A DNA stretch of 64,000 nt from an uncultured Acidimicrobiia bacterium (GTDB lineage Bacteria; Actinomycetota; Acidimicrobiia; Acidimicrobiales; AC-14), in NCBI GenBank assembly GCA_963836205.1, contig CAWIIV010000012.1, forward strand, positions 96,001 to 160,000, read 5' to 3'. Below are positions 3,798-46,045 of this stretch, piece by piece (position 1 is the first letter of the stretch; the number at the start of each line of letters is the position of its first letter). The position numbers were made by a program, and so were the translations under genes. The notes under the pieces were generated by a model, which was given only the letters and a program-made list of their open reading frames with translations, had not been told where the DNA came from and did no database searches.

Positions 3798-4338
3798 ATC
3801 AGGTCGCCTATCCACGATTCGCTCGTGCCCTGTCACCACCCTACAGAGGTGGGTGTCCCTCTGCCGCGGTTTACACCCGCCGACATGCGTGGTCACCCAC
3901 CGGGCGGCTCACCCGGAACAGCACGGCTACTCGACCCCTCAACGTCGCCGTGCTGTCCCGCGGGCGTGGACCCGGCCTGCCGGGCCGCGCCCGGCTGGCG
4001 AGCCGTGACCGGTCCTGACCGGGCGTTGGGCTCAGGCTGGTCGCACGACCGACATCCTGGACGCGTACTCGGCCAACAGCTTGTTCAGCACGTGCCACGA
4101 CAGGTCGGATTAGGTCCTGAAGGTCCTCTTGTCGTGGGAGATCTCGTCGACATGATCGAAGTCGTTACGGCCGCCGGGCTGGGCGGGCTTGTCGAGAGCT
4201 GGCGGACCGAGGTCACGACATGCGGGGTGATCCACCACGTCGTCCTGGGGATTCCAAGGTTTCATCCCGAAAATGCGTTCTTCGGATGGCCGTTTGTCGA
4301 CGAACCCCAATTGCATATCAAGAGGTGGTTGCCCACAT

Positions 4339-5307
4339 CTACCGAGGAAGGATCACGGACAGAAGACCGGCTGTCAAGGGAGCTAAGATAGCGACGCCCG
4401 ACTGGAATTGCTCCGCCGGCCTGATCCCGAGCCGCAGGAGCGTCACGAGATTTTCTCGTCCGGAGTACCAGTCTGCAGTCGGCTCGGTCTTCGGCACAGG
4501 ATAGCGTTTGCCGACGAATGCCTCACCAACCGACTCAAGCCTGACGTAGACAGGCACGTAGATCAGTGCTACGAGAGCCGTGAAGAGCAGCCCGTACAAA
4601 ACCACTGCTATTGACGGAAACTCAATAGGGACCTCGAACCTTTTGCCCCAAGCGATCACTGCATTGCGCTGCGCACCTGCGGCTAGGGTAACGGCCGCGA
4701 CGATCGCCCCGAGAACGGCGAGCAGGCGCTGCAGGACCGAGCGAAGATGCATGAGGTGTACGACGATCCGGGCGTCAAGGCCGGACCATTTATCCGTCGT
4801 TTGTTCGACGGCGATGCCCACACGGTGCAGCGCCGCGGCAACCGACCAAATGCCAATGATCGGGGGTCCAGCGGCGAGGAACCCCAGGATGGTCAATAAC
4901 TGGATCCGTGAGGCGTAAGGGTCGAGTACCGCAGGCCGCCAAGAGGAGGCGTTCAACCCAAGACTCCCGGCTACGACGATCGCCAATCCGAGGTGGAGCG
5001 CTAAGAGCTTTCCGCGAGGAACTCTGTACCCGGCCCAGATCCGCCGCAGCGCGGACAGCGAAATAGGAAACAGCACGGCCCAGAGCGCGGACTGTGCGGC
5101 AATCATCGTAGCCCACACCCCGAATTCGGGAACATCGCGCAACGAGTTCCCCCGGTCAGGCACCGAGTTGACCGTCGCGTAGCCGATGATAAGGCCCACG
5201 AAGGTAAGGGCCAACGCCATCGCCGCGTCGCGTGGCGCGGCTGGGAGGCGGAGCTCCGGATCACCCAACTCGCCAAGGTCAGGCGACCCGCCGACATGCT
5301 CCGACAC
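4339..5307 (-). CDS. Multi-pass membrane protein of unknown function
   Basis: 322-aa ORF with about 6-7 hydrophobic segments; codons appear less GC-rich than in core genes. Confidence 0.7.
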   Translation of the reverse strand: MSEHVGGSPDLGELGDPELRLPAAPRDAAMALALTFVGLIIGYATVNSVPDRGNSLRDVPEFGVWATMIAAQSALWAVLFPISLSALRRIWAGYRVPRGKLLALHLGLAIVVAGSLGLNASSWRPAVLDPYASRIQLLTILGFLAAGPPIIGIWSVAAALHRVGIAVEQTTDKWSGLDARIVVHLMHLRSVLQRLLAVLGAIVAAVTLAAGAQRNAVIAWGKRFEVPIEFPSIAVVLYGLLFTALVALIYVPVYVRLESVGEAFVGKRYPVPKTEPTADWYSGRENLVTLLRLGIRPAEQFQSGVAILAPLTAGLLSVILPR

Positions 5308-5342
5308 TTGAGAAGTATGGGGCCGGCGTCAAGAACGTCGCG

Positions 5343-5485
5343 CTGACGACCGAGGAGATCATGGTTTGACCCGGCAGTCGTGACGATGGCCGTCGGGACT
5401 TGGTCGACAGCAACCTGCTCCTGGATGTGCTGACGGAGGCCGACGCCAGGCTCGGGTGTCGGCGAACGCGCTGGCGCAGGCCGGG
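5343..5485 (+). pseudogene. Degenerate VapBC toxin-antitoxin remnant
   Basis: LTTEEIM (AbrB-type antitoxin C-terminus) followed by a broken PIN N-terminus VDSNLLLDVLTE..SANALAQA. Confidence 0.55.
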
Positions 5486-5520
5486 CAATCGGATCGCCCC
5501 GCTGCGATGCCCACCACACG

Positions 5521-7917
5521 GTGCGGACCGCGAACGGATTCCCTCGCGGTCCCATGCATCGTCGTATCGAAGGGCTTACTCTTCTTTCTGTGGCGGCGGC
5601 CGACGGTCCATCCCGTGACGGGGACGACGCGTCCGAGGACGCGCCGTTCACTCTCCTGGGCGACCAGCCTTACGAGTTGGACCGGGATCCCCTGGGTTTC
5701 GACGCCCTCGTCAGCGACCTTGCCGACCTTGTACTCGAATCCCGGGGCTCGACCCCGTTCACGTTGGGGCTGGACGCAGGTTGGGGAATGGGCAAGAGCT
5801 CGCTTATGCGGAAGCTCCGCTCCACGCTGGACGGCTACGACAATGTCACGACCGTGTGGTTCAACGCATGGACCTCCGAGGGCAACAGTGTGCTGGAGGG
5901 GCTCATCAAGTCGGTGCTCGACAGGATCGATCCGAACATCCTGCGCCGCAGCCTCCGCCGGCAGCATCTCGTTCGGGGTTTCCGGCTCACAGTGACCGTT
6001 GTCGCTAGCGTGCTTCGACTCGGGAATCTCGTCGACCGGATCTGGGAGCGGATCTCGATCGACCCTCGCGCCCGCAATGAAATGGCCGAGCTGATGAAAC
6101 TCGCCATGTCAGACTGGATGGCCCGAAGCCGGCAGCCGCAGGGCCGGGTGCTCGTCGTGTTCGTCGATGATCTCGACCGCTGCTCGCCTGCCAGCGTGTT
6201 CCAGGTGTTCGAGGCAATTAAGCTATACCTGGACACGAGCGGATTCGTTTTCGTCCTCGGATATGACTCGTCCATAATCTCGGAGGCCATCCTCGAGGAG
6301 AAGAAGTACAGCAAGCAGATTACGAGCCGGGACTACCTCGAGAAGATCATTCAAATCGGCTACCGAATCCCTATCGCCGACGACGAACATGCCAAGGCTC
6401 TGGTTGAGGAATACCTCGACTCCTCGAACACCTCCCACCTCTTCGATGATTCACTTAAGGCACTCGTAGTCGATCGCAACGACCGGAATCCGCGACGAAT
6501 AAAGCGGTTTATCAACGGCTTCATCCTGCAGTACGGCCTAGACCGGGACTGGGCGGAGCTTGGGGCCGCGAATCTGGTCAAGGTCGAGATTCTGCGCGTC
6601 TACTTTCCCGACTTCGCCCGATTGCTGGGAGGTTCGGGTCCGGCCGACACAATCACCGAGTTCTTGGAATACGTCGAGACGAGAACCTTCCTGAGGCAGG
6701 AGCTCCAAACGGAAGGGCCGAGGTGGGGCCGGGTCAGTGAGGTCTTGGCCTCCCACCACGTCGCAATCGGTCCCGATGGCGAAACGCCGCGGTCCCACCG
6801 CGACCTCCTCCATGCGCTCGAGCAAGAACTGCCCGAAGCCTTTCCGGCCGCTGTTCAGGACGCGAACTTCGTAGCCCTGCTCCAGAGCTTTCCACCCGAG
6901 GCCGATAGGGGTCGGCTCCGCGAGAAGCTCGAGGGCCGGTACGTCCCCCTGTTCAGGCCATCGAGGCTGGTACTGCGGACCGATGGCGGGGGCGACGCGA
7001 AGGAGTTCAACTTTGCCGGGGTGAAACTGCTGTGGATCGACGACAAGCCAGAGCGCAACGCTGCGTTAGCGGCGGCAATCGAGCAGTTCGGCGGCGAGGT
7101 CCACTCCGTGGGCGACTTCGAGGGCGCCGCCGAGTTGCTCCGTTCGGGCGGTGCGATCGACGTGGTGATCGCGGAGATGTCGGGGCGCGGTAGCAACGAT
7201 GCCGGCCTTGGGCTCGTGGGCCGGCTTCAGGAGGAGCGGCTCTTCCGCTGCGCCCTCGTCTTCTATACCGCCCGCGTAACGCCCGCGCGACGTGACGCCG
7301 CTGCAAAGCTGGGCGCGCTCGGGGTCACCAACGATCCGTCGCAGCTGCTTACCCTGCTGACTCGGGCTTTGGCTGCGCCATTGGCCACTGAGTCGCCCGT
7401 CCCTGCGGAGAAGGTGCGCCGGGGACGGAGTCGCACGAGTGCACACCTCCCCAGGGTGTACATCAGCTATCGCCGGGAGGATTCCTCGGGATACGCCGGT
7501 CGCCTCTACGACCAGTTGGCCTCACGAGCTCAACGAGGGACGGTCTTCCGCGACGTGGACTCAATTGCACCCGGCGTCGACTTTTCCCAGGCTGTGAGGA
7601 GCGCCGTGCTGGAAGCGGACGCGCTGGTCGTCGTGATTGGCTTGTCCTGGCTCGACGGGACCGATGGGTCGGGACGACGTCGGCTGGACAATCCCGACGA
7701 CTTCATTCGCCTTGACATCGCCGCGGCGTTGACCTCCAACATGCTTGTGATCCCAGTCCTGGTTGAAGGAGCGGCCATGCCCAGGCCGGATGAGCTTCCG
7801 ACGAATATCAGTGATCTGGCCAGACGTAACGCGGTCGAGCTCTCCGACGAGCGCTGGACATATGACGTCGACCGTCTGGTCGACGTACTCGAAAACTTCG
7901 CGGAGAGGACCGCGTGA
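5521..7917 (+). CDS. KAP-family P-loop NTPase + receiver-like domain + TIR domain fusion
   Basis: Walker A GWGMGKS, Walker B VFVDDLDRC, YLEKIIQ, NPRRIKRF; REC-like LLWIDD; TIR VYISYRREDS..VFRD; start may be GTG 5590. Confidence 0.88.
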   Translation: MRTANGFPRGPMHRRIEGLTLLSVAAADGPSRDGDDASEDAPFTLLGDQPYELDRDPLGFDALVSDLADLVLESRGSTPFTLGLDAGWGMGKSSLMRKLRSTLDGYDNVTTVWFNAWTSEGNSVLEGLIKSVLDRIDPNILRRSLRRQHLVRGFRLTVTVVASVLRLGNLVDRIWERISIDPRARNEMAELMKLAMSDWMARSRQPQGRVLVVFVDDLDRCSPASVFQVFEAIKLYLDTSGFVFVLGYDSSIISEAILEEKKYSKQITSRDYLEKIIQIGYRIPIADDEHAKALVEEYLDSSNTSHLFDDSLKALVVDRNDRNPRRIKRFINGFILQYGLDRDWAELGAANLVKVEILRVYFPDFARLLGGSGPADTITEFLEYVETRTFLRQELQTEGPRWGRVSEVLASHHVAIGPDGETPRSHRDLLHALEQELPEAFPAAVQDANFVALLQSFPPEADRGRLREKLEGRYVPLFRPSRLVLRTDGGGDAKEFNFAGVKLLWIDDKPERNAALAAAIEQFGGEVHSVGDFEGAAELLRSGGAIDVVIAEMSGRGSNDAGLGLVGRLQEERLFRCALVFYTARVTPARRDAAAKLGALGVTNDPSQLLTLLTRALAAPLATESPVPAEKVRRGRSRTSAHLPRVYISYRREDSSGYAGRLYDQLASRAQRGTVFRDVDSIAPGVDFSQAVRSAVLEADALVVVIGLSWLDGTDGSGRRRLDNPDDFIRLDIAAALTSNMLVIPVLVEGAAMPRPDELPTNISDLARRNAVELSDERWTYDVDRLVDVLENFAERTA

Positions 7918-8074
7918 ACGAGACGGCCATCGATCTTGCCGCCCAGACGGAACCGAGCCTCGCCAGGGTCGTTCGAGAATGTGAGTGGTGCCCAAGCCAC
8001 CGGTCACCACTCACCCCGCACCCGTGTCGATCGCTGCCGGGCGATCGCATCCCCACAGGTGTCCGGCGCTCAGA

Positions 8075-8096
8075 AAATCCGCAACAAATCCGCAAC
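8075..8096 (+). repeat. 11-bp tandem repeat AAATCCGCAAC x2 (putative integrase arm site)
   Basis: Exact tandem copies about 105 bp inside the att site. Confidence 0.5.
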
Positions 8097-8200
8097 ATGA
8101 TTGCGCGTGACAGAGCGCAACAGAGAGCAAGAGGGTGGACCAGAAACTGCCCCTCACCAGGACTTTCGCAGAACGGGCCAAGTCAGAGACGTGCGTCCCG

Positions 8201-8249
8201 GCTGCCTTCTAAGCAGCGGGTCGCAGGTTCGAGTCCTGCCGGGGGCGCC
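8201..8249 (+). mobile_element. 3' half of tRNA-Arg(TCT), the attR-type end of an integrative element
   Basis: GCTGC-CTTCTAA-GCAGC anticodon arm, T arm GCAGG-TTCGAGT-CCTGC and acceptor 3' strand; no 5' acceptor strand or D arm. Confidence 0.85.
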
Positions 8250-8329
8250 GGTGGAAGTCCAGGTCAGACTCCCATGCCTTGCTGCCGCGAGCATGTGACG
8301 GCCGGACGACACCGAAGAGATCCCCGCTC

Positions 8330-8560
8330 CGGAGCGCTACTCGCCTGCCGGTCAGAGTGACGAAGTGGCCCAGCGCAGCCTGAGCCTGGCTCGCCGGCAG
8401 CTGCAGATCCTCGACGATGCCCTGGCGGACAGGCGGGCGAGCGAGCCTCATGACGACGAGCGCTTCGCCTGCCCGAAAGGCGGCGAGGGCCTCGCGGGAG
8501 GAGGCCGCTCCCGCTTGGTCCGCGTCAGCGCCCCGTCCGACATTGATGCGTGCCGGTCCG
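8330..8560 (-). pseudogene. Serine resolvase/invertase remnant
   Basis: Across frames: RINVGRG/LTRTKRERP/REALAAFRAGEALVVMRLAR/GIVEDL, similar to an actinobacterial resolvase catalytic domain. Confidence 0.5.
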
Positions 8561-19091: not shown

Positions 19092-20152
19092 GCCTCGATA
19101 CCGCCGCCGCCGCCGGCGGGGCCGGCGGGGCCGGTGCCGGCGAGCCGCTGCTGCAGGTGGACGACCTGCGGGTCCACTTCCACACCGACGGCGGCGTGGT
19201 CAAGGCGGTCGACGGCGTGAGCTGGTCGGTCGGCCGGGGCGAGACGCTGGGCATCGTGGGCGAGTCGGGGTCGGGCAAGTCGGTGTCGGCCCTGGCCGTC
19301 ATGGGCCTGGTGCCCGTCCCGCCCGGGAGGTTCGAGTCGGGGCGGATCGTGTTCGGCGGCCGCGACCTGCTGACCACGGGGGAGAAGGAGCTGCGGGCCA
19401 TCCGGGGCAAGGAGATCTCGATGATCTTCCAGGACCCGCTCACGTCGCTCAACCCCGTCTTCAAGATCGGCCACCAGATCGCGGAGGTCATCCAGGCCCA
19501 CGAGAAGGTGGGTCGGGTGGCGGCCCGGCGGCGGGCGGTGGAGCTGCTGGGCGAGGTCGGCATCCCCAACCCGGCCCAACGGGCCCAGGAGTACCCCCAC
19601 CAGTTCTCGGGCGGGATGCGCCAGCGGGCGCTGATCGCCATGGCTCTGGCCCTCGACCCGGCCGTGCTGCTGGCCGACGAGCCCACGACGGCCCTCGACG
19701 TCACCGTCCAGGCCCAGATCATGGACCTGCTCCTGCGTCTACAGGCGCAGCGGGGCACGGCGGTGGTGCTCATCACCCACGACCTGGGGCTGGTGGCCGG
19801 CCATGCCGACCGGGTGGTGGTGATGTACGCGGGCCGGGTGGCGGAGACGGCCGGCGTCGACGACCTCTACTACCGCCCCCGCCACGCCTACACCCTGGGC
19901 CTGTTGTCGAGCCTGGCCCGGCTCGACCGGCGTCGCTCCGAGCGGCTGCGGCCGATCGTGGGCCAGCCGCCGAGCCTCATCCGGGTGCCGCCGGGATGCG
20001 CGTTCCATCCCCGCTGCCCGTTCGCCACCGACGTCTGCCGCCAGGACCGGCCCGAGCTGTCGGCCCAGGCCGACGCCGGGGCCGGCCACTTCGCCGCCTG
20101 CCACCACGCCGACGAGGTGGCCCAGGCGCCGGCGGCGGTGGTGGCGACGTGA
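19088..20152 (+). CDS. oppD: Peptide ABC transporter ATPase
   Basis: [17 protein letters not shown]-terminal GCAFHPRC. Confidence 0.9.
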
Positions 20153-21267
20153 GTACCGCCGAGACGGCCGAGACGGTCGTGCCCGCGGCCGCGGCCGAGT
20201 CGGTGGCTGTGCCCGCGCCGGCCGGGGCCGGGGCCGGAAAGGGGGAGGCGGAGGCCACGGGCGGGCCGCTGCTGGAGGTCGTCGACCTGGTCAAGCACTT
20301 CCCCGTCCGGGCCGGGATCGTGTTCAAGCACTCCATCGGGTCGGTGAAGGCGGTCGACGGGGTCTCCTTCGCCATCCGCCGCGGGCAGACGTTCGCGGTG
20401 GTGGGCGAGAGCGGGTGCGGGAAGTCGACCACCGCCCGGGCGATCCTCCGCCTGCTCGAGCCGACCTCGGGGTCGGTGCGCTTCGACGGGGAGGATGTGA
20501 CGGGTGCCGGGCCCAGCCGGATGCGCCACCTGCGGCGGGAGATGCAGATGATCTTCCAGGACCCCTACGCCAGCCTGAATCCGAGGATGACCGTCCGCAC
20601 CATCCTGGGCGAGCCGTTCAAGATCCACGGCCTGCCCGAGGAGGGACGGGTCGACGAGCTGCTGTCGTTGGTGGGCCTCTCGCCCGAGCACGCCCGCCGC
20701 TACCCCCACGAGTTCTCCGGCGGCCAGCGCCAGCGGGTGGGCATCGCCCGGGCCCTCGCCCTCGATCCCAAGCTGGTGGTGTGCGACGAGCCGGTGTCCG
20801 CCCTCGACGTGTCCATCCGGGCCCAGGTCCTCAACCTGCTGGAGGACCTTCAGGACCAGCTCGGGTTGACGTACCTGTTCATCGCCCACGACCTGAGCGT
20901 CGTCCGCCACATCGCCGACGAGGTGGCGGTGATGTACCTGGGCGCCATCGTCGAGGTTGCCGGGCGGGACGAGCTGTTCGAGCAGGCCTCACACCCCTAC
21001 ACCCAGGCCCTCATCTCGTCGGTGCCGGTGCCCGACCCCATCCGGGAGCGCAGCCGCAAGCGGATCCTCGTCACCGGCGACCCGCCCAGCCCGGTCAACC
21101 CGCCGAGCGGGTGCCGGTTCCGGACCCGCTGTCCCAAGTTCGCCGACGAGCTGTCGGAGGGCGAGCGCCAACGGTGCGTCGACGAGCGCCCCGCCCTCGT
21201 GGTGCGGGACGGGAGCGCCGGCCATCCGTCGGCCTGCCACTACGCCGAGGCCCGCAAGCTGGTGTAG
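20149..21267 (+). CDS. oppF: Peptide ABC transporter ATPase
   Basis: [27 protein letters not shown]. Confidence 0.9.
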
Positions 21268-21331
21268 CGGACCGGAGCCGCCCTCCCGCGGCCGTGGCCG
21301 TCTACTGTGCGCCGGGACTCTACGGGAGGTC

Positions 21332-22666
21332 ACGACCACGGCCAGCCGCCACATCGGTGTTTCCATCTCGGGGGGCGGGCACCGGGCCAGCCTGTTCGGC
21401 CTGGGCGCACTCATCTACCTTGTCGACGCGGGGAAGGGACCCGAGATCTCCTGCGTCTCGTCGGTGTCGGGCGGCTCCATCACCAACGGCTGGGTGGGAC
21501 TCAAGACCGACCTTTACGTGGCCGCGTCGGGCGACTTCCGCTCCGACATCGCCCCGCTGGCCAGGGCGGTCTCCACCGGGGGCACCCTGTGGCGGGCCCC
21601 GCTGACCTGGGCCTATCTGATCCTGATGGGCGCGATCCTGGCGTTGGCAACGGTGCTGTGCTTCCCCCTCGAGGGGGTGGCGGCACTGGCGGTGTGGCTG
21701 GTGGCGTTGGTGGTGGTCGGGTGGCTGGCCCGGCAGCGGGCGCTGGTGGCGGCCCACGCCTTCGACCAGGTTCTGTTCCACGGCGCCGAGCTGGGCCGGC
21801 TGAACCCCAACACCGACCACGTCATCTGCGCCTGCGATCTCCAGTCGGCGGAGGACGTGTACTTCTCCGGACGCTTTGTCCACTCCTACCGGCTGGGCTG
21901 GGGCGTGCCGGGCGACCTGCGCCTGTCGCGGGCCGTCCAGGCCTCGGCCTGCCTGCCGGGTGCCTTCGCCCCGGTGGTGCTGCCGATCGAGCGCCACCGC
22001 TTCTCGCTGGCGGGGGCGGGCGACGAGCCGCTCACCCGCATGCTCCTCACCGACGGCGGCGTCTACGACAACATGGCCACCGAGTGGCCGCTCAACCTGC
22101 GCAGCCGGGCCCGCTCGGGCGCGGCACCCGAGCCGCCGCCCCACGAGGTCGACGAGGTGGTGGTGGTGAACGGCTCGGCCGGTGGCGACGTGACCACTCG
22201 CAGGTCGGTCACCGTGCCCGTGCTGGGCGAGATCACGTCGCTGCTGGCGGTGAAGGACGTCCTGTACGACCAGACCACGGCCGTGCGCCGGCGCCTGCTC
22301 GACGTCCGCTACCGGGCCACCCGGGCCGGGATTCGCGACGACAACGTCCGTCTCGCGGGGGGGACGGTGCAGATCGACCGCTCGCCGTACGAACTGCCCC
22401 GCACCTTCCTCTCCGGGGGCGACGACCTCGCCCGGCGGGCGAAGGCGGCCCTCGAGCGGCTCACCCCTGGCGAGGAGGCGGCGTGGGCCGCCGACGCCGA
22501 TGCCAACCGGCGGGTCAAGACAGCCCTTTCCAAGATCCCGGCCGACCGGGCCGCCCGCATCCTGCGCCAGGCCTACGTGCTGACCATGGTGAACATGCAC
22601 GTGCTCCGGGATTACCCGCTGCTGCCCATCCCGGCCGTCGCCGAGTTCGAGAAACTGGTGGTGTGA
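21332..22666 (+). CDS. Patatin-like phospholipase with two internal hydrophobic helices (start uncertain)
   Basis: SGGGHRA oxyanion loop, SVSGGS nucleophile elbow, TDGGVYDN catalytic Asp; GGAGG is followed by ACG at 21332. Confidence 0.85.
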   Translation, partial: TTTASRHIGVSISGGGHRASLFGLGALIYLVDAGKGPEISCVSSVSGGSITNGWVGLKTDLYVAASGDFRSDIAPLARAVSTGGTLWRAPLTWAYLILMGAILALATVLCFPLEGVAALAVWLVALVVVGWLARQRALVAAHAFDQVLFHGAELGRLNPNTDHVICACDLQSAEDVYFSGRFVHSYRLGWGVPGDLRLSRAVQASACLPGAFAPVVLPIERHRFSLAGAGDEPLTRMLLTDGGVYDNMATEWPLNLRSRARSGAAPEPPPHEVDEVVVVNGSAGGDVTTRRSVTVPVLGEITSLLAVKDVLYDQTTAVRRRLLDVRYRATRAGIRDDNVRLAGGTVQIDRSPYELPRTFLSGGDDLARRAKAALERLTPGEEAAWAADADANRRVKTALSKIPADRAARILRQAYVLTMVNMHVLRDYPLLPIPAVAEFEKLVV

Positions 22667-25616
22667 GCCCGGCCGACGCCGACAGGGATGTCGCCCGGGT
22701 GCTGGCGGGGGTGCTGGCGGCCGGAGGCTTGGGGGTCGACGACGTGTCCGGGGCCGTGGCTGGCGGCCTGCTGGAGGAGGAGATCGGAGTGTCGTCGCGC
22801 TGGATGCCGGGTGAGCTCGGCGGCGACGACCCGACCGGCGTCTACGTGTTCGAGGCCATGCGCCCGGTCGCCCGGTGGACGACCCCGTCCGACGAGCTGG
22901 TGGCCGAGGTGGCCGTGAGGATCGGCGCGGCGAGTGGCCGGCGGTTGGTCAGCCCGGCCCGGGGAGGATGGGGCCGTCCCGTCCTGCGGCTGGCGGTCGG
23001 TGGCCTCGACGACGCGGCCGCGCTTCGTCGCATGGGTTCGGTGGCCGGCCTCCGCCTCGTCCCCCATGTGATGCGGACGGCGCACCGGGTCTCGTGGCGG
23101 TGGCCGCTGCGGGTCGGTGTCCTTGCCGGGCCGAAGGCGACGGAGCACGTCAGCCAGATCACCGGGCACCACGACAACCTCTTCTCCGTAACGATCGTGG
23201 AGCCGTCGTCGGCACCGGTCGAGCTCGAGATCCTCGTCCTTCCCGACGCCGCCGCCGAGGTGCCGGACGGGGTGTGGGCGGCCTGCGTGCTCGTGTCGGG
23301 GGGCGGGGGCGGCGAGGTCGTCCAGCAGGTCGAACGGTTGGACCCGGCCGCGATCGTGATCGCCCAGTCGAGCGACCTGGCCTGGTTCCGCTACCTGATC
23401 GCGGAGCTGTCCCACGACGAGCCCATCGACGTGGCCGTCACCGTGGGCTGCCCGGACGACGTCGTGGTCGTCGCCGACCAGTCCCTCCTCTCCTTGACCA
23501 TGCCGCGGTTCTGGGCCCTGCGATGGATCGAGGAGCTCGACCGACTCGACCCGTCCACCATGGTCGGCGGCACGCCCGTCGGGACCATCGTCGAGGAGAT
23601 GCGGACCCTCGTCGCCGGCGGCAGCTTCCGCTTCGAGAGCGACTCGTCCACCGAATTGTCCGACAAGGTCAGACGGGTGGACCCGGACGGGGTCGGCGAG
23701 CTGACGATCGTTCGCCACCGAGTCGCCATGGCCGAGGCCCTGCCGCCGGACGAGGGGTCCAGCGGGGACGAAGCGACGGCCAACGGCGGCGGTCCCCCGG
23801 CCGGCGAAGGCGACGCCATGGCCGACGGCGGTGATGCGTGGGTCGGCGAGGGCGGCGGTGCCCCACCGGGCGGCGGCGCCCCACCGGGAGGGGGCGCCCC
23901 ACCGGGAGGCGGTGCGCCGGGCGGCGGCGCCCCACCGGGAGAGCGGCGCGCCACCGGGAGGCGGTGCGCCACCGGGAGGCGGCAGGCCGGGCGAGGAGGT
24001 CGATCGGGGCGTCCTCCCGGGCAGCGCCGAAGGCGGCGGCGCCGGCCCGGTGGAGGCCCCGGCACCCGACACCCGCCGGGTGCAGACCCAGTTCGTCGAT
24101 CCCGGCACGAAGAAACCGGTGCCCGACCGGTTCGTGGCCGGTGCCGTCCACCACCTGCGGGTCCGGATCGCAGCCAGGTTGGCGGAGGAGGCGGTGGGGG
24201 CCGACGCACCGTTCGTCAACCCCACGCCGGGACGGGAGGCCGAGCTGCTCGTGGAGGTCATCGCCGGCGACACCCACGCCCGGCGCCAGCTCACCCTCCC
24301 CGCCATCGGCGACTCCAAGTGGACCAGGGTCGTCCCCTTCGTAGTCCCCGCCGACGCGTCCGAGTTCGAGGTGATCGTCCAGATCTGGTTCGCAGGACGG
24401 GTGGTGCAGAGCCTCGTCCTGTCCGGACCGGTCGGCGGGGCCGGGGGCCTCCACCTGAGCGTCGACGCCTCCACCCCCGCGGCCGATGTCCACGACATGA
24501 GCCCGGCCGGCGCCTCCTTCACGATCGTGCCCGGACTCGGGGGCGAGCCCCGGCTCTTCGACCTGGCCCAGGCCAACCTGATCACCTCGGCCGGCATAGC
24601 CCGGGCCGTGGCCGAGGTCCGGTCGGCGCTGCTGGCGGCCTTCCTCGACCCCCCGACCTCGCTGGAAGGCGGCGGCGGGCGTGCTCATCGAGCTGGCCCT
24701 GAGCGGCAGGGATCTCTACCTCCAGCTGCAGGCGGCCACCTACGACGACGCCGAGTGGATCCACGTGTCGTCGTTCGGCGGTGCCGACCTGCCGGTGGAG
24801 CTCGTCTACACCCACCTCGCCCCCGACGATGCCACCGTCCCGGTGTGCCGGCCGGCTCTCGCGGGGGCGTTGGAGTGCGCCGACGACTGTCCCGACAAGG
24901 GCAACTCCGACTGCGTTTGCCCGTTCGGTTTCTGGGCCACCAGCAAGGTGATCGAACGGCGGGCCCACACCGACGGACGCACGAGCCCCACGGCCGGCGC
25001 CCAGCGGTCGGTCCCGATCCTGACCCTGGGTGCGGCCGGGGTGTCGGTGAAGGCCGACGAGGTCGACCCGACGTCGAGCTCTCGCATCCTGACTGCGGTG
25101 GAGTCGGCGGTGGCGGCCGGCGGGTTCCACCGGGTCACGACGTGGGCCGACCTGAAACCGCTGGCCAAGCTCCCGGCCCAGTTGCTCGTCCTCATCACCC
25201 ACACCGTCCCCGGCAACCCGCCGCAGCTCCAGCTCGGAACCGACATCCGTGGCCTTCGCTTCATCGACACGAACTACGTGAACCTGGGGACGCCCCGCGT
25301 CCCGGGGCCGGTGGTGCTGGCCATCGGCTGTGACACCGAGGCCCTGGAGGCGGGTTTCTCCGACTACCCGGGACGGCTGATCGGGGCGGGGGCGGAGGTG
25401 GTGGTGACCGCCATCTCGCCGGTTCCGGGCAAGACGGTGGCCGACTTCGTGGTCCGGTTCTTCGAGGCCCTGCCCGGGTACCTGGCCGCGCCGGGCATCC
25501 ACCGCTTCGGTGAGGTGCTCACCGCCATCCGTCAGCGGACGATCGCCCAGGGCGACGTGCTCGGCCTCGCCCTGGTCGCCGCAGGTGACGCCGACGTCGC
25601 CCTGGTGGGGACCTAA
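22663..25616 (+). CDS. Large protein with a C-terminal CHAT/caspase-like domain; two +1 frameshifts (near 23941 and 24667)
   Basis: Three successive frames join to about 983 aa; LPVELVY, CPFGFW..VIER, LLVLITH (His), AIGCDT (Cys), GAGAEVVVTAISPV, LALVAAGDAD. Confidence 0.72.
23871..23990 (+). repeat. 18-bp tandem repeat encoding GGGAPP (about 7 imperfect copies)
   Basis: GGCGGCGGYGCCCCACCG-like units seen directly. Confidence 0.85.
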
Positions 25617-25622
25617 CGCCCG

Positions 25623-26696
25623 GTGCTCACCGTCGAACTGCTGCCGGCCGGCTACGGCGACGCCGTCCTCGTCACCTACGGCGACCCGGCCACGCCCCAC
25701 CGCCTGCTCGTCGATGGCGGCCAGTCGGGCAGCTTCCCCGCCGTGGCCGCCCGCCTGCGCTCCTTCAACGGGCCCATCGACCTGCTGGTGGTCACCCACG
25801 TCGACACCGATCACGTCGGAGGTGCGGTCCGGCTCCTCGACTCGGGCGCGCTGGCCGCCCGCTTCGGCGGCATCTGGTTCAACGGCTACGTCCACCTCGA
25901 CCGCTTCTCGGGCCTGCTCGGGCCCATCCACGGCGAGCGCCTGACGGACCGGATCGTCAAGCTGGGCCTGCCGTGGAACGAGGGCTGGCCCGATCCGATG
26001 CAGGACGGGATCGGCGGGCCGGTCGTGGTGCGCGACGTCCCCCCGGTGATGGAATTGCCGGGCGGGGCCACCGCCACCGTCCTGTCCCCGACACCCCAGA
26101 AGCTGGCCAGGCTGCTGCGAGTGTGGAAGGAGGTGGTGGAGGCGGCCGGCCTGCGCCCCCGGGTGAAGGCCACCGAGGAGGCGGAGCCGGCGGTGGTGGC
26201 GCCCGGCCTCCTCGGCGGGGTGAGCCTGGCCGACCTGGCCCGACTCCCCACCGGCGCCGACACCGCCGAGGCCAACGGGTCGAGCATCGCCTTCATCTTC
26301 GAGTTCGAGGGGGTCCGGGTCCTCCTCGGGGCCGACGCCCACCCCGACGCCCTCCTCGCCGGGCTCGCCCACCTGGCCGCCGCCGACGGGAAGGTCCGCC
26401 TCGACGCCTGCAAGCTGCCCCACCACGGGAGCAAGGGCAACGTCACCAAGGCCCTGGTCGAGGCCCTCGACTGCCCCCTGTGGTTGGTGTCCACCAACGG
26501 TCGCCGCTTCCACCACCCCGACGACGTCGCCCTGGCCCGGGTGATCTCCGGCGGGCCCGACCGGCGCCTGGTGTGGAACTACCGCAGTGACCGTTTCCAG
26601 GCCTTCACCGCCGACTACCCGCCGGCCACGTCGGGCTACTCGGTCGAGGTCCCCGACGACGGGGTCGAGGGGATCACCGTCCGTCTGGCCGACTGA
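25623..26696 (+). CDS. MBL-fold metallo-hydrolase (ComEC/Rec2-like subgroup)
   Basis: [45 protein letters not shown]. Confidence 0.88.
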
Positions 26697-26806: not shown

Positions 26807-28633
<1,827 letters not shown>

Positions 28634-28716: not shown

Positions 28717-29367
28717 TCAGACCCGTCCGGCCCCGGTCTTGAGCGCCCGCCAGGTGTTCCGGCCGACGAACCCGTCGACATCGAGTCCGCGGGATGCCTG
28801 GTAGGCCCGCACCGCCCCGTCGGTGGCCGAGCCGAAGACCCGGAAGTCGTCGCCGGGCTGTTCGAAGCCGGCCCGGTCGAGGAGCTCCTGGAGGTGGCCG
28901 ACGGCCTCGCCCGTCGAACCCAGGAACAGCATGGGCTCCTCCTGGCCGACAGGGGTGACGGGGGTTTTGGTCACGGGTGACGTGGAAACGGTCTCGTCGA
29001 CCGACTGGCACGCGGGACGGACCGCGGCCACGAACTGCCGGTAGGCGCCCGAGGAGAAGATCGACCAGGGGCTGAACGACCGGCCGTGGCCGCTGATCTC
29101 CCAACCCGCCTCCGCGTTGTGGCCGGGATCGCGATTGGCCAGCTCGTCCCGGACGCCGTCCGTGCCCTTCTCCGTCCGGAGAGAGCGGATCTGGAGCAGG
29201 CCCACGCTCGGGCCCCATGTCTCGTCCTGGAGGCCCGTGTCGCCCACCGCATCGGCGTCGAACCCGCTCTCGCCCTTGGCGATGGCCACGATCGTCACCA
29301 GCGCTTCTCCGCTGAACCCCGCCTTGTGGCAGAAACCGGCGACGTCCTCCGCCGACAGCACGCTCAT
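28717..29367 (-). CDS. Lysozyme-like/transglycosylase domain plus peptidoglycan-binding domain protein
   Basis: AIAKGESG, SVGLLQI, FSPWS; C-terminal GSTGEAV..AVRAYQ..GLDVDGFVG. Confidence 0.8.
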   Translation of the reverse strand: MSVLSAEDVAGFCHKAGFSGEALVTIVAIAKGESGFDADAVGDTGLQDETWGPSVGLLQIRSLRTEKGTDGVRDELANRDPGHNAEAGWEISGHGRSFSPWSIFSSGAYRQFVAAVRPACQSVDETVSTSPVTKTPVTPVGQEEPMLFLGSTGEAVGHLQELLDRAGFEQPGDDFRVFGSATDGAVRAYQASRGLDVDGFVGRNTWRALKTGAGRV

Positions 29368-29527
29368 CTCGTCCTCCCCCGATCGCGTTGGGCGATTCGC
29401 GTCGGCCGCCTGGCGAAGGGGAGTCCGCCGTCTCACCTCCGCCAGGGCGGCCGTACATCAAGGAAGAGTCGGACGGGCGGGCCCTGATACATCCCCCCGC
29501 CGAGAAACCCGGCCCGGGGAGTGTTGC

Positions 29528-41298: not shown

Positions 41299-41447
<149 letters not shown>

Positions 41448-44365: not shown

Positions 44366-44982
44366 CCTCGGGCGCTCGGTCCGGTCCCCCCTCGATGCCG
44401 AGCTCACGCCGCCAACTCCGGTTGGATCGCCAGGGCGATCGGAGGTCACGGCCCGGAATCCGGTCCGTCGAGTGCCAGCCCTGGTGATTCGAGGTACTGG
44501 GGACGGGAAGCGTGCCCGCCGCTCTGCCGATGTCGCTCGACCACGCGGATGCGACGTAGCCGATCGCCCCACGGGCGGTGGCGGCGTCACGGCCGGACGG
44601 GTCGATGACCCCGCGGGCGAACCGGGAGTGGCGCCGGATAGAGGGATCTTTGACGATCGATCCGGTTGCGGAGATGATCCAACGACTGCCCCCGGGCGCC
44701 GACGACTCAGCCAACCGTCGCCCTTGAGATCTGATCATGTGAACCGCTTGTTGAATCCCAGCGAGGATTCGCGAGAAAGTCCCTTGGGCACGGCAGGCGG
44801 AAACCACCGACAAGGCTCGACGAATATGCTTGTCCTCAGCGCCCTCGAGTCGATACGACTCGCGAGCGATACGCTGGGCGACCCACGCCGTCTGTCGCTC
44901 TATCCGCAAGAGGCGCAGTGGAATTCGGAAGCATGAGTAGCTTGGCGAGGCCCAAACCGATCGGCGGTGACGTCAGCTATGC

Positions 44983-45942
44983 TTGCCCCACATGTGTGGC
45001 ATTACACAAGAGCCGTTCGAGGAGGTCGTAGCGAAATTCGCGATAGTCGCCGCCGACGGGTCGACCCTCGGCATTCAGATGATGGATCAGACGGCGGGAC
45101 CGGTTCGGGGCAGCCCGATATGGACGTTGGACGCCCTGAGGGCGGCCGTCCCTCCGACGGCCTGGCTCGACTCCGATATTATGCTCTTGGCTAAGACATT
45201 ACGTGTCTACGTCGGCATTGCCGCTCTCCACCTCGGCGGCCTAAGCCGAATTCTCCGAGCTGGGCCGCCAATCGACCTCCACCCTCTTGTCAGTCTCGTG
45301 CGTAGCATTGCAGAAGCCACTGGAAAGGCGTGGTGGCAGGTCGAACCGTGGCTGGATGACGAGGGCGCAGCGGAGACGCTCCAGCCCGAAGAGTGGGAGC
45401 TACGGTCCCGGCCGATTCTGGCCAGGCTCGAGTTGACCCACCTGGACGAACTATGAGCGAGGCGGCGACGCGTAGAGGTCTCGAAGGGACGCTCGAGCAT
45501 GCAGTATGCCGAGGCCGACAAGGCAGTCGCTGCCATGCGCGCCGAACTCGTTCGGCGACATCCGTCGGGCGGCATGCAGCTTTCGGGAAAACGCAATGTT
45601 TGGCGGATCAATGGCGAATGTTTGCCTCCCATCATAGACCTGGTAATCGCTGCCACTGAGTACGCGTACGGTCAGCGCACCCGCGGCTCCGGCATCAATC
45701 CTTACCCGACGTACTCGGGGTTCGCGCACGCAAGCCTTGAGATCGTGTTAGCTCACGCTGGAGTTCGTGACGCCCCTTTATCAATCGCACTCGCCGCCAC
45801 AGACGAGGAGCTTCGTGGCGTTGTTAGTATCGCGATCCGGACATTCGCCGTTGCGTACGAGATCGCGGCGTCGGCGCTCGGAAACGATCTCAGTTCTCTG
45901 CGATCATGGGAAGCGCGGTGGGAAGGGTTGATCCGCGCATGA
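44983..45942 (+). pseudogene. DUF5677/HEPN-like protein interrupted by an in-frame TGA at 45454
   Basis: Two ORFs in the same frame; LVRSIAEA and YPTYSGFAH motifs. Confidence 0.45.
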
Positions 45943-46045
45943 CCGATCGCGAGCCATCTTCCGTATCTGTCCGCATATCGACGTGGGAGGCGTTAGCCTC
46001 CTCCTTTAGGGGTTGAAGTACGGGCGACAAGCGTTTGAATATTCA

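Follow-up and report, generated by a model that had tools for sequence, protein, structure and literature searches.

The closest described relatives of the locus examined here, a three-gene cassette in a 64-kb stretch of DNA from an uncultured Acidimicrobiia bacterium (C12:96001-160000 of the source assembly, G000; hereafter the window), are modules in which a protease unlocks a nuclease of the metallo-beta-lactamase (MBL) fold. According to the accessible text of PMC12799240 (Science, November 2025), MBL nucleases of Hachiman and AVAST systems that are paired with trypsin-like proteases are proenzymes, opened by the cutting of two gating insertions, and another MBL clade lies downstream of caspase-family proteases in so-called 'canu' loci, a variable group in which immunoglobulin (Ig)-like and TPR domains occur. 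One of these loci, KaeCanABC from Klebsiella aerogenes, is described there as protecting against phage T4 only if both catalytic sites and both predicted cut sites are intact; the cut sites lie in two gating insertions of CanC and carry conserved glycines, and the caspase CanAB turns CanC into a nuclease in vitro. The accessible part of a preprint of the same month (bioRxiv 10.1101/2025.11.14.688446) distinguishes three MBL clades, tied to trypsin, caspase-like and S8 proteases, and describes a Zn-dependent nuclease active on double-stranded DNA after double cleavage, together with LcHydrolase/LcCaspase, an alpha/beta-hydrolase zymogen that is activated by a caspase, again via double cleavage.

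Our cassette comprises three co-oriented coding regions on the + strand between oppF (end 21267) and typA (start 26807), delimited from the list of open reading frames (ORFs) and from a frame plot of G+C content at third codon positions (GC3). They encode, in order, a patatin-like phospholipase, a middle protein whose gene, of roughly 983 codons, spans three reading frames, and an MBL hydrolase. A GTGA overlap at 22663-22666 combines the GTG of the middle gene (22663-22665) with the TGA of the patatin gene (22664-22666), and a 6-bp gap, with no additional small gene in between, separates the end of the middle-gene stop at 25616 from the MBL GTG at 25623. The first-pass annotation had described this layout together with SxSGG and DGG motifs in the patatin, LITH and IGCDT in the middle protein and HxDxDH in the MBL protein, and all of these are present. 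We consider it reasonably probable that the locus is a canu-type abortive-infection module, in which a CHAT-like protease frees an MBL deoxyribonuclease (DNase) and to which the patatin contributes a further, membrane-directed effector or an accessory. The protease-MBL core is of a described kind, and is a new variant of it by virtue of its protease. The claim that the whole trio constitutes an undescribed system therefore does not hold for the core, as this matches the canu loci of PMC12799240 and MBL clade 2 of bioRxiv 10.1101/2025.11.14.688446 so far as their accessible texts describe them; it survives for the patatin addition, which, as judged from searchable texts, is apparently absent from print.

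The MBL protein comprises 357 residues, carries its metal motif as HVDTDH (25797-25814) and matches Pfam Lactamase_B at E 1.3e-8. The PADLOC comparison that had been proposed for the locus returned three defence-system models for this protein, one named LmuA (E 8.6e-56), Avs1a (2.2e-34) and RTasMBL (2.7e-33). Its nearest solved relatives, by sequence as well as by fold, are ComEC nuclease domains (9ic4, Foldseek E 5.9e-12). Across 35 MBL sequences the metal ligands are invariant, as are two Leu-Gly pairs at residues 99-100 and 197-198, which stand in otherwise variable stretches. The AlphaFold2 (AF2) model has a predicted local distance difference test score (pLDDT) of 87.8 and a predicted template modelling score (pTM) of 0.89, with just two low-confidence segments, 93-100 and 178-188, the latter staying low to residue 200; each Leu-Gly pair is therefore predicted to lie in or at a disordered loop.

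In the window these pairs form the candidate cleavage motifs GLLG at 25911-25922 and GLLG at 26205-26216. The residues that precede Leu-Gly vary among genomes and agree between the two sites, with GLLG/GLLG in the window and DWLG/DWLG, DVLG/DVLG or xRLG/xRLG elsewhere. Position -4 of the xxLG motif holds the same residue at both sites in 31 of the 35 genomes (15.0 on average after shuffling, with 31 attained in 0 of 5000 shuffles) and position -3 in 21 of the 35 (shuffled mean 9.5; 0 of 5000 reach the observed count), in a test that ignores the relatedness of the genomes and whose result is inflated by it. Co-varying sites are the pattern that would be expected from a single protease specificity reading two sites. 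As a sequence-level signature of dual-site recognition, this pattern predicts where the protein would be cut. The two loops and the co-variation of their motifs would be hallmarks of a protease-gated pro-nuclease, and membership of the MBL protein in the defence-associated group of such nucleases is supported by its homology and motifs.

For the middle protein we relied on an intact 906-residue ortholog, P0001, from a relative of the same genus (G002). An AF2 model of P0001 built on a 64-row alignment (pLDDT 90.1, pTM 0.72) shows an alpha/beta domain at residues 1-343, a disordered linker at 345-377, a beta-sandwich at 387-556, a set of helices and a further alpha/beta region that runs to residue 906. 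Foldseek places Csx29 TPR-CHAT first among matches to this model (E 5.7e-7, probability 1.00), followed by DdvA, separase, SAVED-CHAT, gingipain and caspases. VIA-align, run against 48,161 chains, gave a similar picture, with Z scores of 18.9 for Csx29, 17.2 for separase, 16.8 for gingipain, 13.5 for SAVED-CHAT and 9.2 for MALT1, the matches spanning model residues ~426-906. The separase alignment falls on both the His and the Cys motif. These two residues, His770 and Cys812 of P0001, are invariant in alignments of 64 and 52 diverse family members and correspond in the window to the His of LITH (codon 25200-25202) and the Cys of IGCDT (codon 25329-25331). The arrangement has the character of clan CD, a caspase-like fold with His and then Cys, each after a beta-strand. 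The models thus bear out, for the C-terminal half of the middle protein, the CHAT/separase/caspase fold with a His/Cys dyad that the first-pass annotation had suggested.

This assignment also draws on transitive sequence evidence. A word-based search found 15 close homologs, all of them unnamed or labelled 'hypothetical protein', and a profile built from ten of these reached 1506 cluster representatives at E<=1e-3, of which 727 pass E<=1e-30; most have 850-1000 residues and align over their full length. Among 52 members, 13 match Pfam CHAT (PF12770) at E<=0.01, the best at 1.9e-8, and one homolog from another genus of the family (G016) matches at E 0.0044; the window pieces and P0001 themselves do not. 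The CHAT-like call holds because fold and transitive sequence evidence are combined. Ahead of the protease core lies a cysteine cluster (window ~24837-24920; P0001 652-676), in which Cys652 and Cys676 are invariant in both the 64- and the 52-member alignments, while at least 90% of members retain Cys666 and close relatives retain Cys662; this cluster may be a metal site. The N-terminal domain (1-343) has no match in Pfam, NCBIfam or PADLOC, and whole-model fold searches scarcely probe it. Its nearest protein-atlas clusters are CHAT proteins at 0.87, a value below the 0.9 mark that we treat as a lead only, and hhalign relates it to the C-terminal protease domain at E 0.02 with a probability of 2%. 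In some relatives this domain is replaced by other sequence, as would fit a swappable input domain.

The first-pass annotation had proposed a survey of homologs for co-occurrence, and among 41 loci found in genome contigs by the family's conserved peptides, the MBL gene lies directly downstream of the protease gene and on the same strand in 38, with a patatin nearby in 15. The three remaining loci comprise L062, in which the MBL gene follows a second, shorter homolog on the opposite strand, and the two weakest matches, which have no MBL gene. The 41 loci span Acidimicrobiia, other Actinomycetota (Streptomyces, Pseudonocardiaceae and others), Gammaproteobacteria, Bacteroidota, Acidobacteriota, Verrucomicrobiota and Gemmatimonadota. 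Other large CHAT proteins flank the pair in L052, L057 and L060 (Streptomyces) and in L053, L062 and L067, namely a 1265-residue CHAT-NB-ARC-TPR protein and a protein of about 1100 residues with a C-terminal CHAT domain (E 2.6e-31). These loci also contain a shared protein of 260-290 residues with no assigned function.

Within the genus, the order oppF-patatin-middle gene-MBL-typA is kept in five of the seven other genomes searched, and a sixth (G007) shows middle gene-MBL-typA with its upstream side cut by a contig end. In three other genera of the family none of the cassette genes adjoins typA, and six of 301 genomes sampled evenly across the class, that of the window included, match at E<=1e-10. 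Given this combination of genus-wide retention with sporadic spread in the class, the cassette is an accessory element, fixed in one genus and sporadic elsewhere. The other-genus relative G016 carries two paralogous cassettes (L017 and L018), each behind an ABC-2 transporter gene and a gene for a 351-356-residue zinc-ribbon/Ig-like (FixG_C-like) membrane protein; only one of them has a patatin, and in that copy the MBL gene is split over two frames.

Plasmids extend this picture. The best plasmid matches to the window MBL, at 30-37% identity, follow either C14 caspases or middle-protein homologs. The former group comprises MBLs preceded by a 'caspase family protein' and a hypothetical protein on Caballeronia, Sinorhizobium and Streptomyces plasmids, the Caballeronia caspase family protein matching Pfam Peptidase_C14; in the latter, the middle-protein homologs are those of Mycobacterium sp. 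JS623 (hhalign E 8.5e-59) and Cupriavidus (E 1.9e-40). Plasmid genes annotated as avs1a are 25-28% identical, and MBLs linked to S8 peptidases are the weakest matches. On plasmid pMYCSM01 of Mycobacterium sp. JS623 (L080), a 798-residue middle-protein homolog and its MBL sit among two TIR-domain genes, a caspase family gene and a WD40 gene, surroundings that look like a conflict island.

Pfam PF01734 recognises the patatin at 32.2 bits (cutoff 27.7), and the protein carries SGGGHR at 21368-21385, VSGGS with its Ser codon at 21467-21469 and DGG with its Asp codon at 22052-22054. The catalytic Ser and Asp, and the sequence DGGVYDN, are invariant in 15 aligned patatins. The description of this protein as membrane-anchored is plausible, in view of a predicted hydrophobic hairpin insertion at residues 88-135. 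A clear long hydrophobic stretch occurs in the window patatin and in five of 15 others (L035, L037, L038, L039 and L048), is short in L041 and L043 and is absent in eight. Through the GTGA overlap, the patatin gene is probably co-transcribed with the protease gene and translationally coupled to it.

Where a patatin lies near the protease-MBL pair it belongs to one subfamily and takes one of four arrangements: directly upstream (10 loci), overlapping the 3' end of the MBL gene (two), at the head of a seven-gene same-strand array (two) or divergent (one). Where the patatin follows the MBL gene (L068 and L071) the overlaps are of 4 nt. The two arrays (L040:2685-12716 and L045:2744-12671), which come from gammaproteobacterial metagenome-assembled genomes and lie wholly on one strand, run from the patatin through a 584-residue protein of unassigned function, a second MBL-like protein (424 residues), an astacin-like metallopeptidase and a 282-residue protein, likewise unassigned, to the CHAT-type protease and its MBL, and may represent two protease-MBL pairs in one operon. 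The same patatin subfamily is found on plasmids (hhalign E 3.3e-61). On two Sinorhizobium americanum plasmids (one of them plasmid B, L082) it is divergent and adjoins a C14 caspase-hypothetical-MBL cassette, on the Paroceanicella plasmid pD4M1C (L086) it stands first in an array of patatin, hypothetical protein, S8 peptidase and MBL, and on a Rhizobium plasmid 2.4 kb separate it from an MBL gene. A Streptomyces plasmid (L083) has an alpha/beta hydrolase gene in the position of the Sinorhizobium patatin.

Literature searches for the combination of a CHAT or caspase protease, an MBL and a patatin in defence did not find the association in print, as judged from searchable texts. PMC12799240 and bioRxiv 10.1101/2025.11.14.688446 do not use the word 'patatin' in their main texts, although their supplements may list such loci. 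The patatin is therefore likely to be a new part, as far as those texts reach.

A detailed comparison with the canu loci brings out both likenesses and differences. In common are the order of a caspase-family protease gene and then a ComEC-like MBL nuclease gene, a nuclease homologous to the protease-gated ComEC-like MBL family, an Ig-like domain within the protease protein, and two disordered insertions that each carry a conserved glycine, a likeness in which distance to the active site is left aside. The MBL of a canu-like caspase-hypothetical-MBL cassette on a Caballeronia plasmid is 36.6% identical to that of the window. The protease, in contrast, is here a CHAT/separase-like protein of about 900 residues, compared with the C14/MALT1-like CanA. 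It is not CanA-like: MALT1 reaches the Z score of only 9.2 given above, and hhalign of the family profile against the C14 'caspase family protein' of a canABC-like cassette, a look-alike that stood in for KaeCanABC itself, returned E 0.19 and hence no profile-level relation. The Ig-like domain lies N-terminal to the protease here and forms a C-terminal fold in CanA. No CanB-like gene was identified at the window locus, where no CanB sequence entered the comparison, and the patatin gene is additional.

The Avs1a/Avs1b systems of AVAST type 1, HamMAB Hachiman, Lamassu and the defence-associated reverse transcriptases (DRT) share with our locus a homologous gated MBL pro-nuclease, as judged from the PADLOC matches. 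In the trypsin-MBL modules the partner protease also cuts two gating loops, as the accessible text of PMC12799240 describes. There, however, a trypsin-like serine protease forms one protein with a STAND, HamA or LmuA sensor, and its gene is preceded by that of the MBL, whereas the window has a cysteine protease with the MBL gene downstream; and the trypsin cut sites carry isoleucine (PMC12799240, same text), whereas the window motif is Leu-Gly. An Avs1 assignment is rejected: there is no STAND nucleoside triphosphatase (NTPase), the middle protein has another fold and matches neither an NTPase nor a trypsin domain, and the NCBIfam Avs1a match of the MBL (E 1.9e-50) scores 171.8 bits, below the cutoff of 420.

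The protease half finds its best structural matches in Csx29, the TPR-CHAT protein of type III-E Craspase, and in SAVED-CHAT, both of them His/Cys CHAT defence proteases; sequence similarity to them is undetectable for the window's own protein. Our protein differs in having no TPR or SAVED domains, the window lacks partner genes of the CRISPR or cyclic-nucleotide kind, and the proposed substrate is a nuclease zymogen rather than Csx30 or the like. A Borvo label is not adopted either, the PADLOC BovA model matching at E 0.042 and 10.4 bits in the window C-terminal piece only, with no match for P0001.

In the cyclic oligonucleotide-based antiphage signalling system (CBASS), the patatin-like phospholipase CapV is a membrane-degrading death effector. 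CapV is also mentioned in the accessible part of PMC13069673. The window patatin differs from it in having no PADLOC match, in being flanked by opp and protease genes and in carrying the hydrophobic hairpin insertion; with no CapV-model match and these flanking genes, the CBASS label is rejected. LcHydrolase/LcCaspase offers a precedent for a lipase-like hydrolase unlocked by a caspase-like protease, as far as the accessible text of bioRxiv 10.1101/2025.11.14.688446 describes it. The patatin fold is distinct from that hydrolase, and the patatins here have no cleavage motif or gating loop that we could find, so that any dependence of the patatin on the protease would be purely inferential.

These comparisons enabled us to propose a model for the cassette. 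A trigger would be read by the N-terminal parts of the protease or via oligomerisation, and the triggered protease would cut both Leu-Gly loops of an inactive MBL proenzyme. The freed nuclease would then degrade DNA and stop the infected cell. It is plausible that the patatin belongs to this system as a second, membrane-directed effector or as an accessory. Activation of the MBL protein by the protease, as put forward by the first-pass annotation, fits the published experiments on related systems (PMC12799240, accessible text), by analogy with them.

Several observations weigh against this model. Our case is built from sequence and models. Neither the middle-gene pieces of the window nor P0001 hit a model in Pfam, NCBIfam or PADLOC, the BovA match already mentioned being the sole exception; the missing profile-level relation to the C14 caspase and the effect of relatedness on the co-variation test, both noted above, belong here too. 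The remaining points concern the integrity of the genes, the attachment of the patatin and the genomic context. They are considered together with the alternative explanations that they favour.

The middle gene is broken twice in the source assembly. Its GC3 frame plot follows frame 0 to ~23940, frame 1 to ~24670 and frame 2 thereafter. The first break is one extra base at ~23941-23942, within one unit of an 18-nt repeat encoding GGGAPP, and the linker that carries it is disordered in the ortholog model (residues 345-377). The second lies in the run GGCGGCGGCGGGC, in a conserved, structured helical region. It is possible, if doubtful, that these breaks are real and that the cassette in this genome is a decaying pseudogene whose protease is not made and whose MBL stays locked, a situation compatible with either functional reading, that of the patatin as part of the module or as a neighbour of it. 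Such decay would suit the position of the second break and the evidence from another genome (G003, discussed below) that the pair can be lost in the genus. It would also suit the patatin start. The first-pass annotation had begun this gene at 21332, which is an ACG codon and not a start; from the oppF stop to the GGGHR motif the frame contains neither ATG nor GTG nor TTG, and the sole CTG is at 21305. Non-canonical initiation or a sequence error may lie behind this lack of a canonical start. Among orthologs, L039 has a GTG that precedes the motif by 17 codons, and L037 likewise offers only a CTG.

To set these breaks against the background of the assembly, 223 ORF fragments from 300 kb of the G002 relative were compared with G000. 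Of the 167 with an ortholog, 19 were split over at least two frames in G000, giving 21 junctions in 58,830 aligned residues or about one break per 8.4 kb. This genome-wide rate predicts ~0.35 breaks in the 2.95 kb of the middle gene, against the two observed, an excess that speaks for real decay; the breakage of 19 genes in like manner, on the other hand, is pervasive and probably technical. The junctions show no homopolymer enrichment, with four of 21 near a run of at least five identical bases compared with 372 of 2000 random 60-nt windows. Contigs of three soil-metagenome runs (word shares 0.11, 0.05 and 0.00) cover 24353-24570, 24693-24843 and other stretches, and none bridges 23941 or 24668-24680. 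The three pieces of the gene keep a strong coding signal, with GC3 of at least 0.9, 55-73% identity to the intact G002 ortholog and no internal stops, their catalytic residues are intact, and the gene is a single open frame in four same-genus genomes. Since frame breaks are pervasive in G000, they point to consensus errors, and those of the middle gene are likely to be an assembly artefact rather than a real lesion. As the assembly is seemingly error-prone, apparent pseudogenes in G000 are untrustworthy, and a 'pseudogene' label for the middle gene would be unwarranted without read support.

A second alternative accepts the two-gene protease-MBL pair as the system and regards the patatin as an independent neighbour, either a stand-alone lipase or a single-gene defence, that shares the operon in some lineages. 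The patatin is missing in 26 of the 41 loci, five of which are cut upstream by a contig end. In the seventh same-genus genome, G003, oppF, patatin and typA are found together without the protease and MBL genes, and 24 of the 28 plasmid records with the patatin subfamily (E<=1e-20) contain no MBL match. A motif matching the xxLG of the MBL is not consistent across 15 patatins, and the motif comparison in these gave no sign that the protease cuts them; a P[VL]LG stretch is shared by the window patatin and the four others examined from the genus, and gives way to other residues in L041, L043 and L048. Against such independence stand the GTGA overlap with the protease gene and the 4-nt overlaps with the MBL gene in L068 and L071. 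Moreover, one subfamily recurs, in four different gene orders, beside pairs whose proteases fall into three unrelated classes, which would be hard to obtain by chance given the few copies per genome. We therefore regard an independent patatin as rather unlikely.

The genomic context is the last of these points. The first-pass annotation had proposed a check for defence-island enrichment. In this genus the cassette is flanked by housekeeping genes, with no defence island. Among 102 neighbour proteins from 30 other loci the Pfam matches are mostly metabolic, led by CHAT (5), P450 (4), GntR (3) and TPR (3). The first 25 of the 129 PADLOC families matched by these neighbours, including SoFic, RT/DRT, AbiEi, AbiEii, PD-T4-6, Cas1 and mads, are represented by one protein each. 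Because of the housekeeping flanks and these scattered matches, the defence context is weak and patchy. A non-antiviral role, in which the cassette would be a self-destruction or DNA-processing device in development, stress or competence (for example DNA degradation or uptake coupled to membrane remodelling), would accommodate such neighbours, the vertical retention at one site between opp and typA in six of the seven other genus members searched and the kinship of the MBL with the ComEC competence nuclease domain, but is very unlikely in the face of the sporadic spread through the class, the presence of the family on plasmids beside transposase, PIN-domain, TIR-domain, WD40 and caspase genes and beside CHAT-NB-ARC-TPR proteins in Streptomyces, the match of the MBL to three defence-system models and the phage defence by the tested relative KaeCanABC (PMC12799240, accessible text).

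The coordinates of the cassette and its flanks are collected in the table below. Just downstream of typA, at 28717-29436 on the - strand, the window encodes a 239-residue protein with lysozyme-like SLT_3 and peptidoglycan-binding domains, probably a cell-wall hydrolase, which lies outside the cassette. Three stretches of the window (3839-5835, 7058-8365 and 44738-46013) have a G+C content of ~0.61-0.65, compared with 0.70-0.73 elsewhere, contain no gene according to a GC3-based caller and no Rfam match, and may be foreign DNA. Adjacent tRNA-Gly(TCC) and tRNA-Pro(TGG) genes at 41299-41447 (-) are the sole RNA families found in the window.

Table. Features of the patatin-protease-MBL cassette and its flanking genes, in window coordinates.
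Feature	Coordinates	Strand	Evidence
oppF-like ABC ATPase, upstream housekeeping flank	20149..21267	+	ORF list; orthologs 84-87% identical flank the cassette in same-genus genomes
Patatin-like phospholipase coding region	21332..22666	+	Pfam PF01734; motif coordinates
Hydrophobic hairpin insertion of the patatin, residues 88-135, probable membrane anchor	21593..21736	+	Kyte-Doolittle scan
Middle gene piece 1, frame 0: N-terminal alpha/beta domain and start of low-complexity linker	22663..23940	+	Aligns with G002 ortholog residues 9-356; AF2 domain 1-343
18-nt tandem repeat, 7.6 copies, GGGAPP, disordered linker; holds the first frame break	23850..23983	+	Tandem Repeats Finder
Middle gene piece 2, frame 1: Ig-like beta-sandwich and start of helical region	23942..24670	+	Ortholog residues 387-556, all-beta in the AF2 model
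Second frame break, one extra base in run GGCGGCGGCGGGC	24668..24680	+	Sequence; GC3 frame plot; orthologs single-frame
Middle gene piece 3, frame 2: CHAT/separase-like cysteine protease domain (predicted)	24672..25616	+	Invariant His/Cys; Foldseek; VIA-align
ComEC-like MBL-fold putative pro-nuclease	25623..26696	+	Pfam, PADLOC, NCBIfam, AF2, Foldseek, motif co-variation
typA/bipA GTPase, downstream housekeeping flank	26807..28633	+	ORF; orthologs 96-99% identical flank the cassette

For the annotation of this and similar genomes, our results imply that the three genes should not be named Avs1, CBASS or Borvo. The middle protein belongs to a large CHAT/separase-like family of about 900 residues that had no database name and now has a confident structural model, and whose members are almost always followed by a predicted gated MBL pro-nuclease.

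The proteolytic unlocking of death effectors is a common logic in bacterial immunity that was recognised only in 2025, and few protease-effector pairs have been tested. The protease classes found beside the patatin subfamily are CHAT-like in the window, C14 caspase in Sinorhizobium and S8 subtilisin in Paroceanicella. Tentatively, and as a conjecture that may well prove wrong, this subfamily could be a recurrent third part of protease-gated nuclease modules of any protease class, with the protease switch driving destruction of both DNA and membrane, or with the lipase serving as a sensor or tether that triggers the protease; the CHAT family would then be a new sensor-protease scaffold. If this were true, such two-pronged execution would be a bacterial counterpart of multi-substrate caspase execution. 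If the lipase is indeed under the control of the same protease, these modules would be multi-effector executioners, nearer to eukaryotic caspase cascades than they are now described to be.

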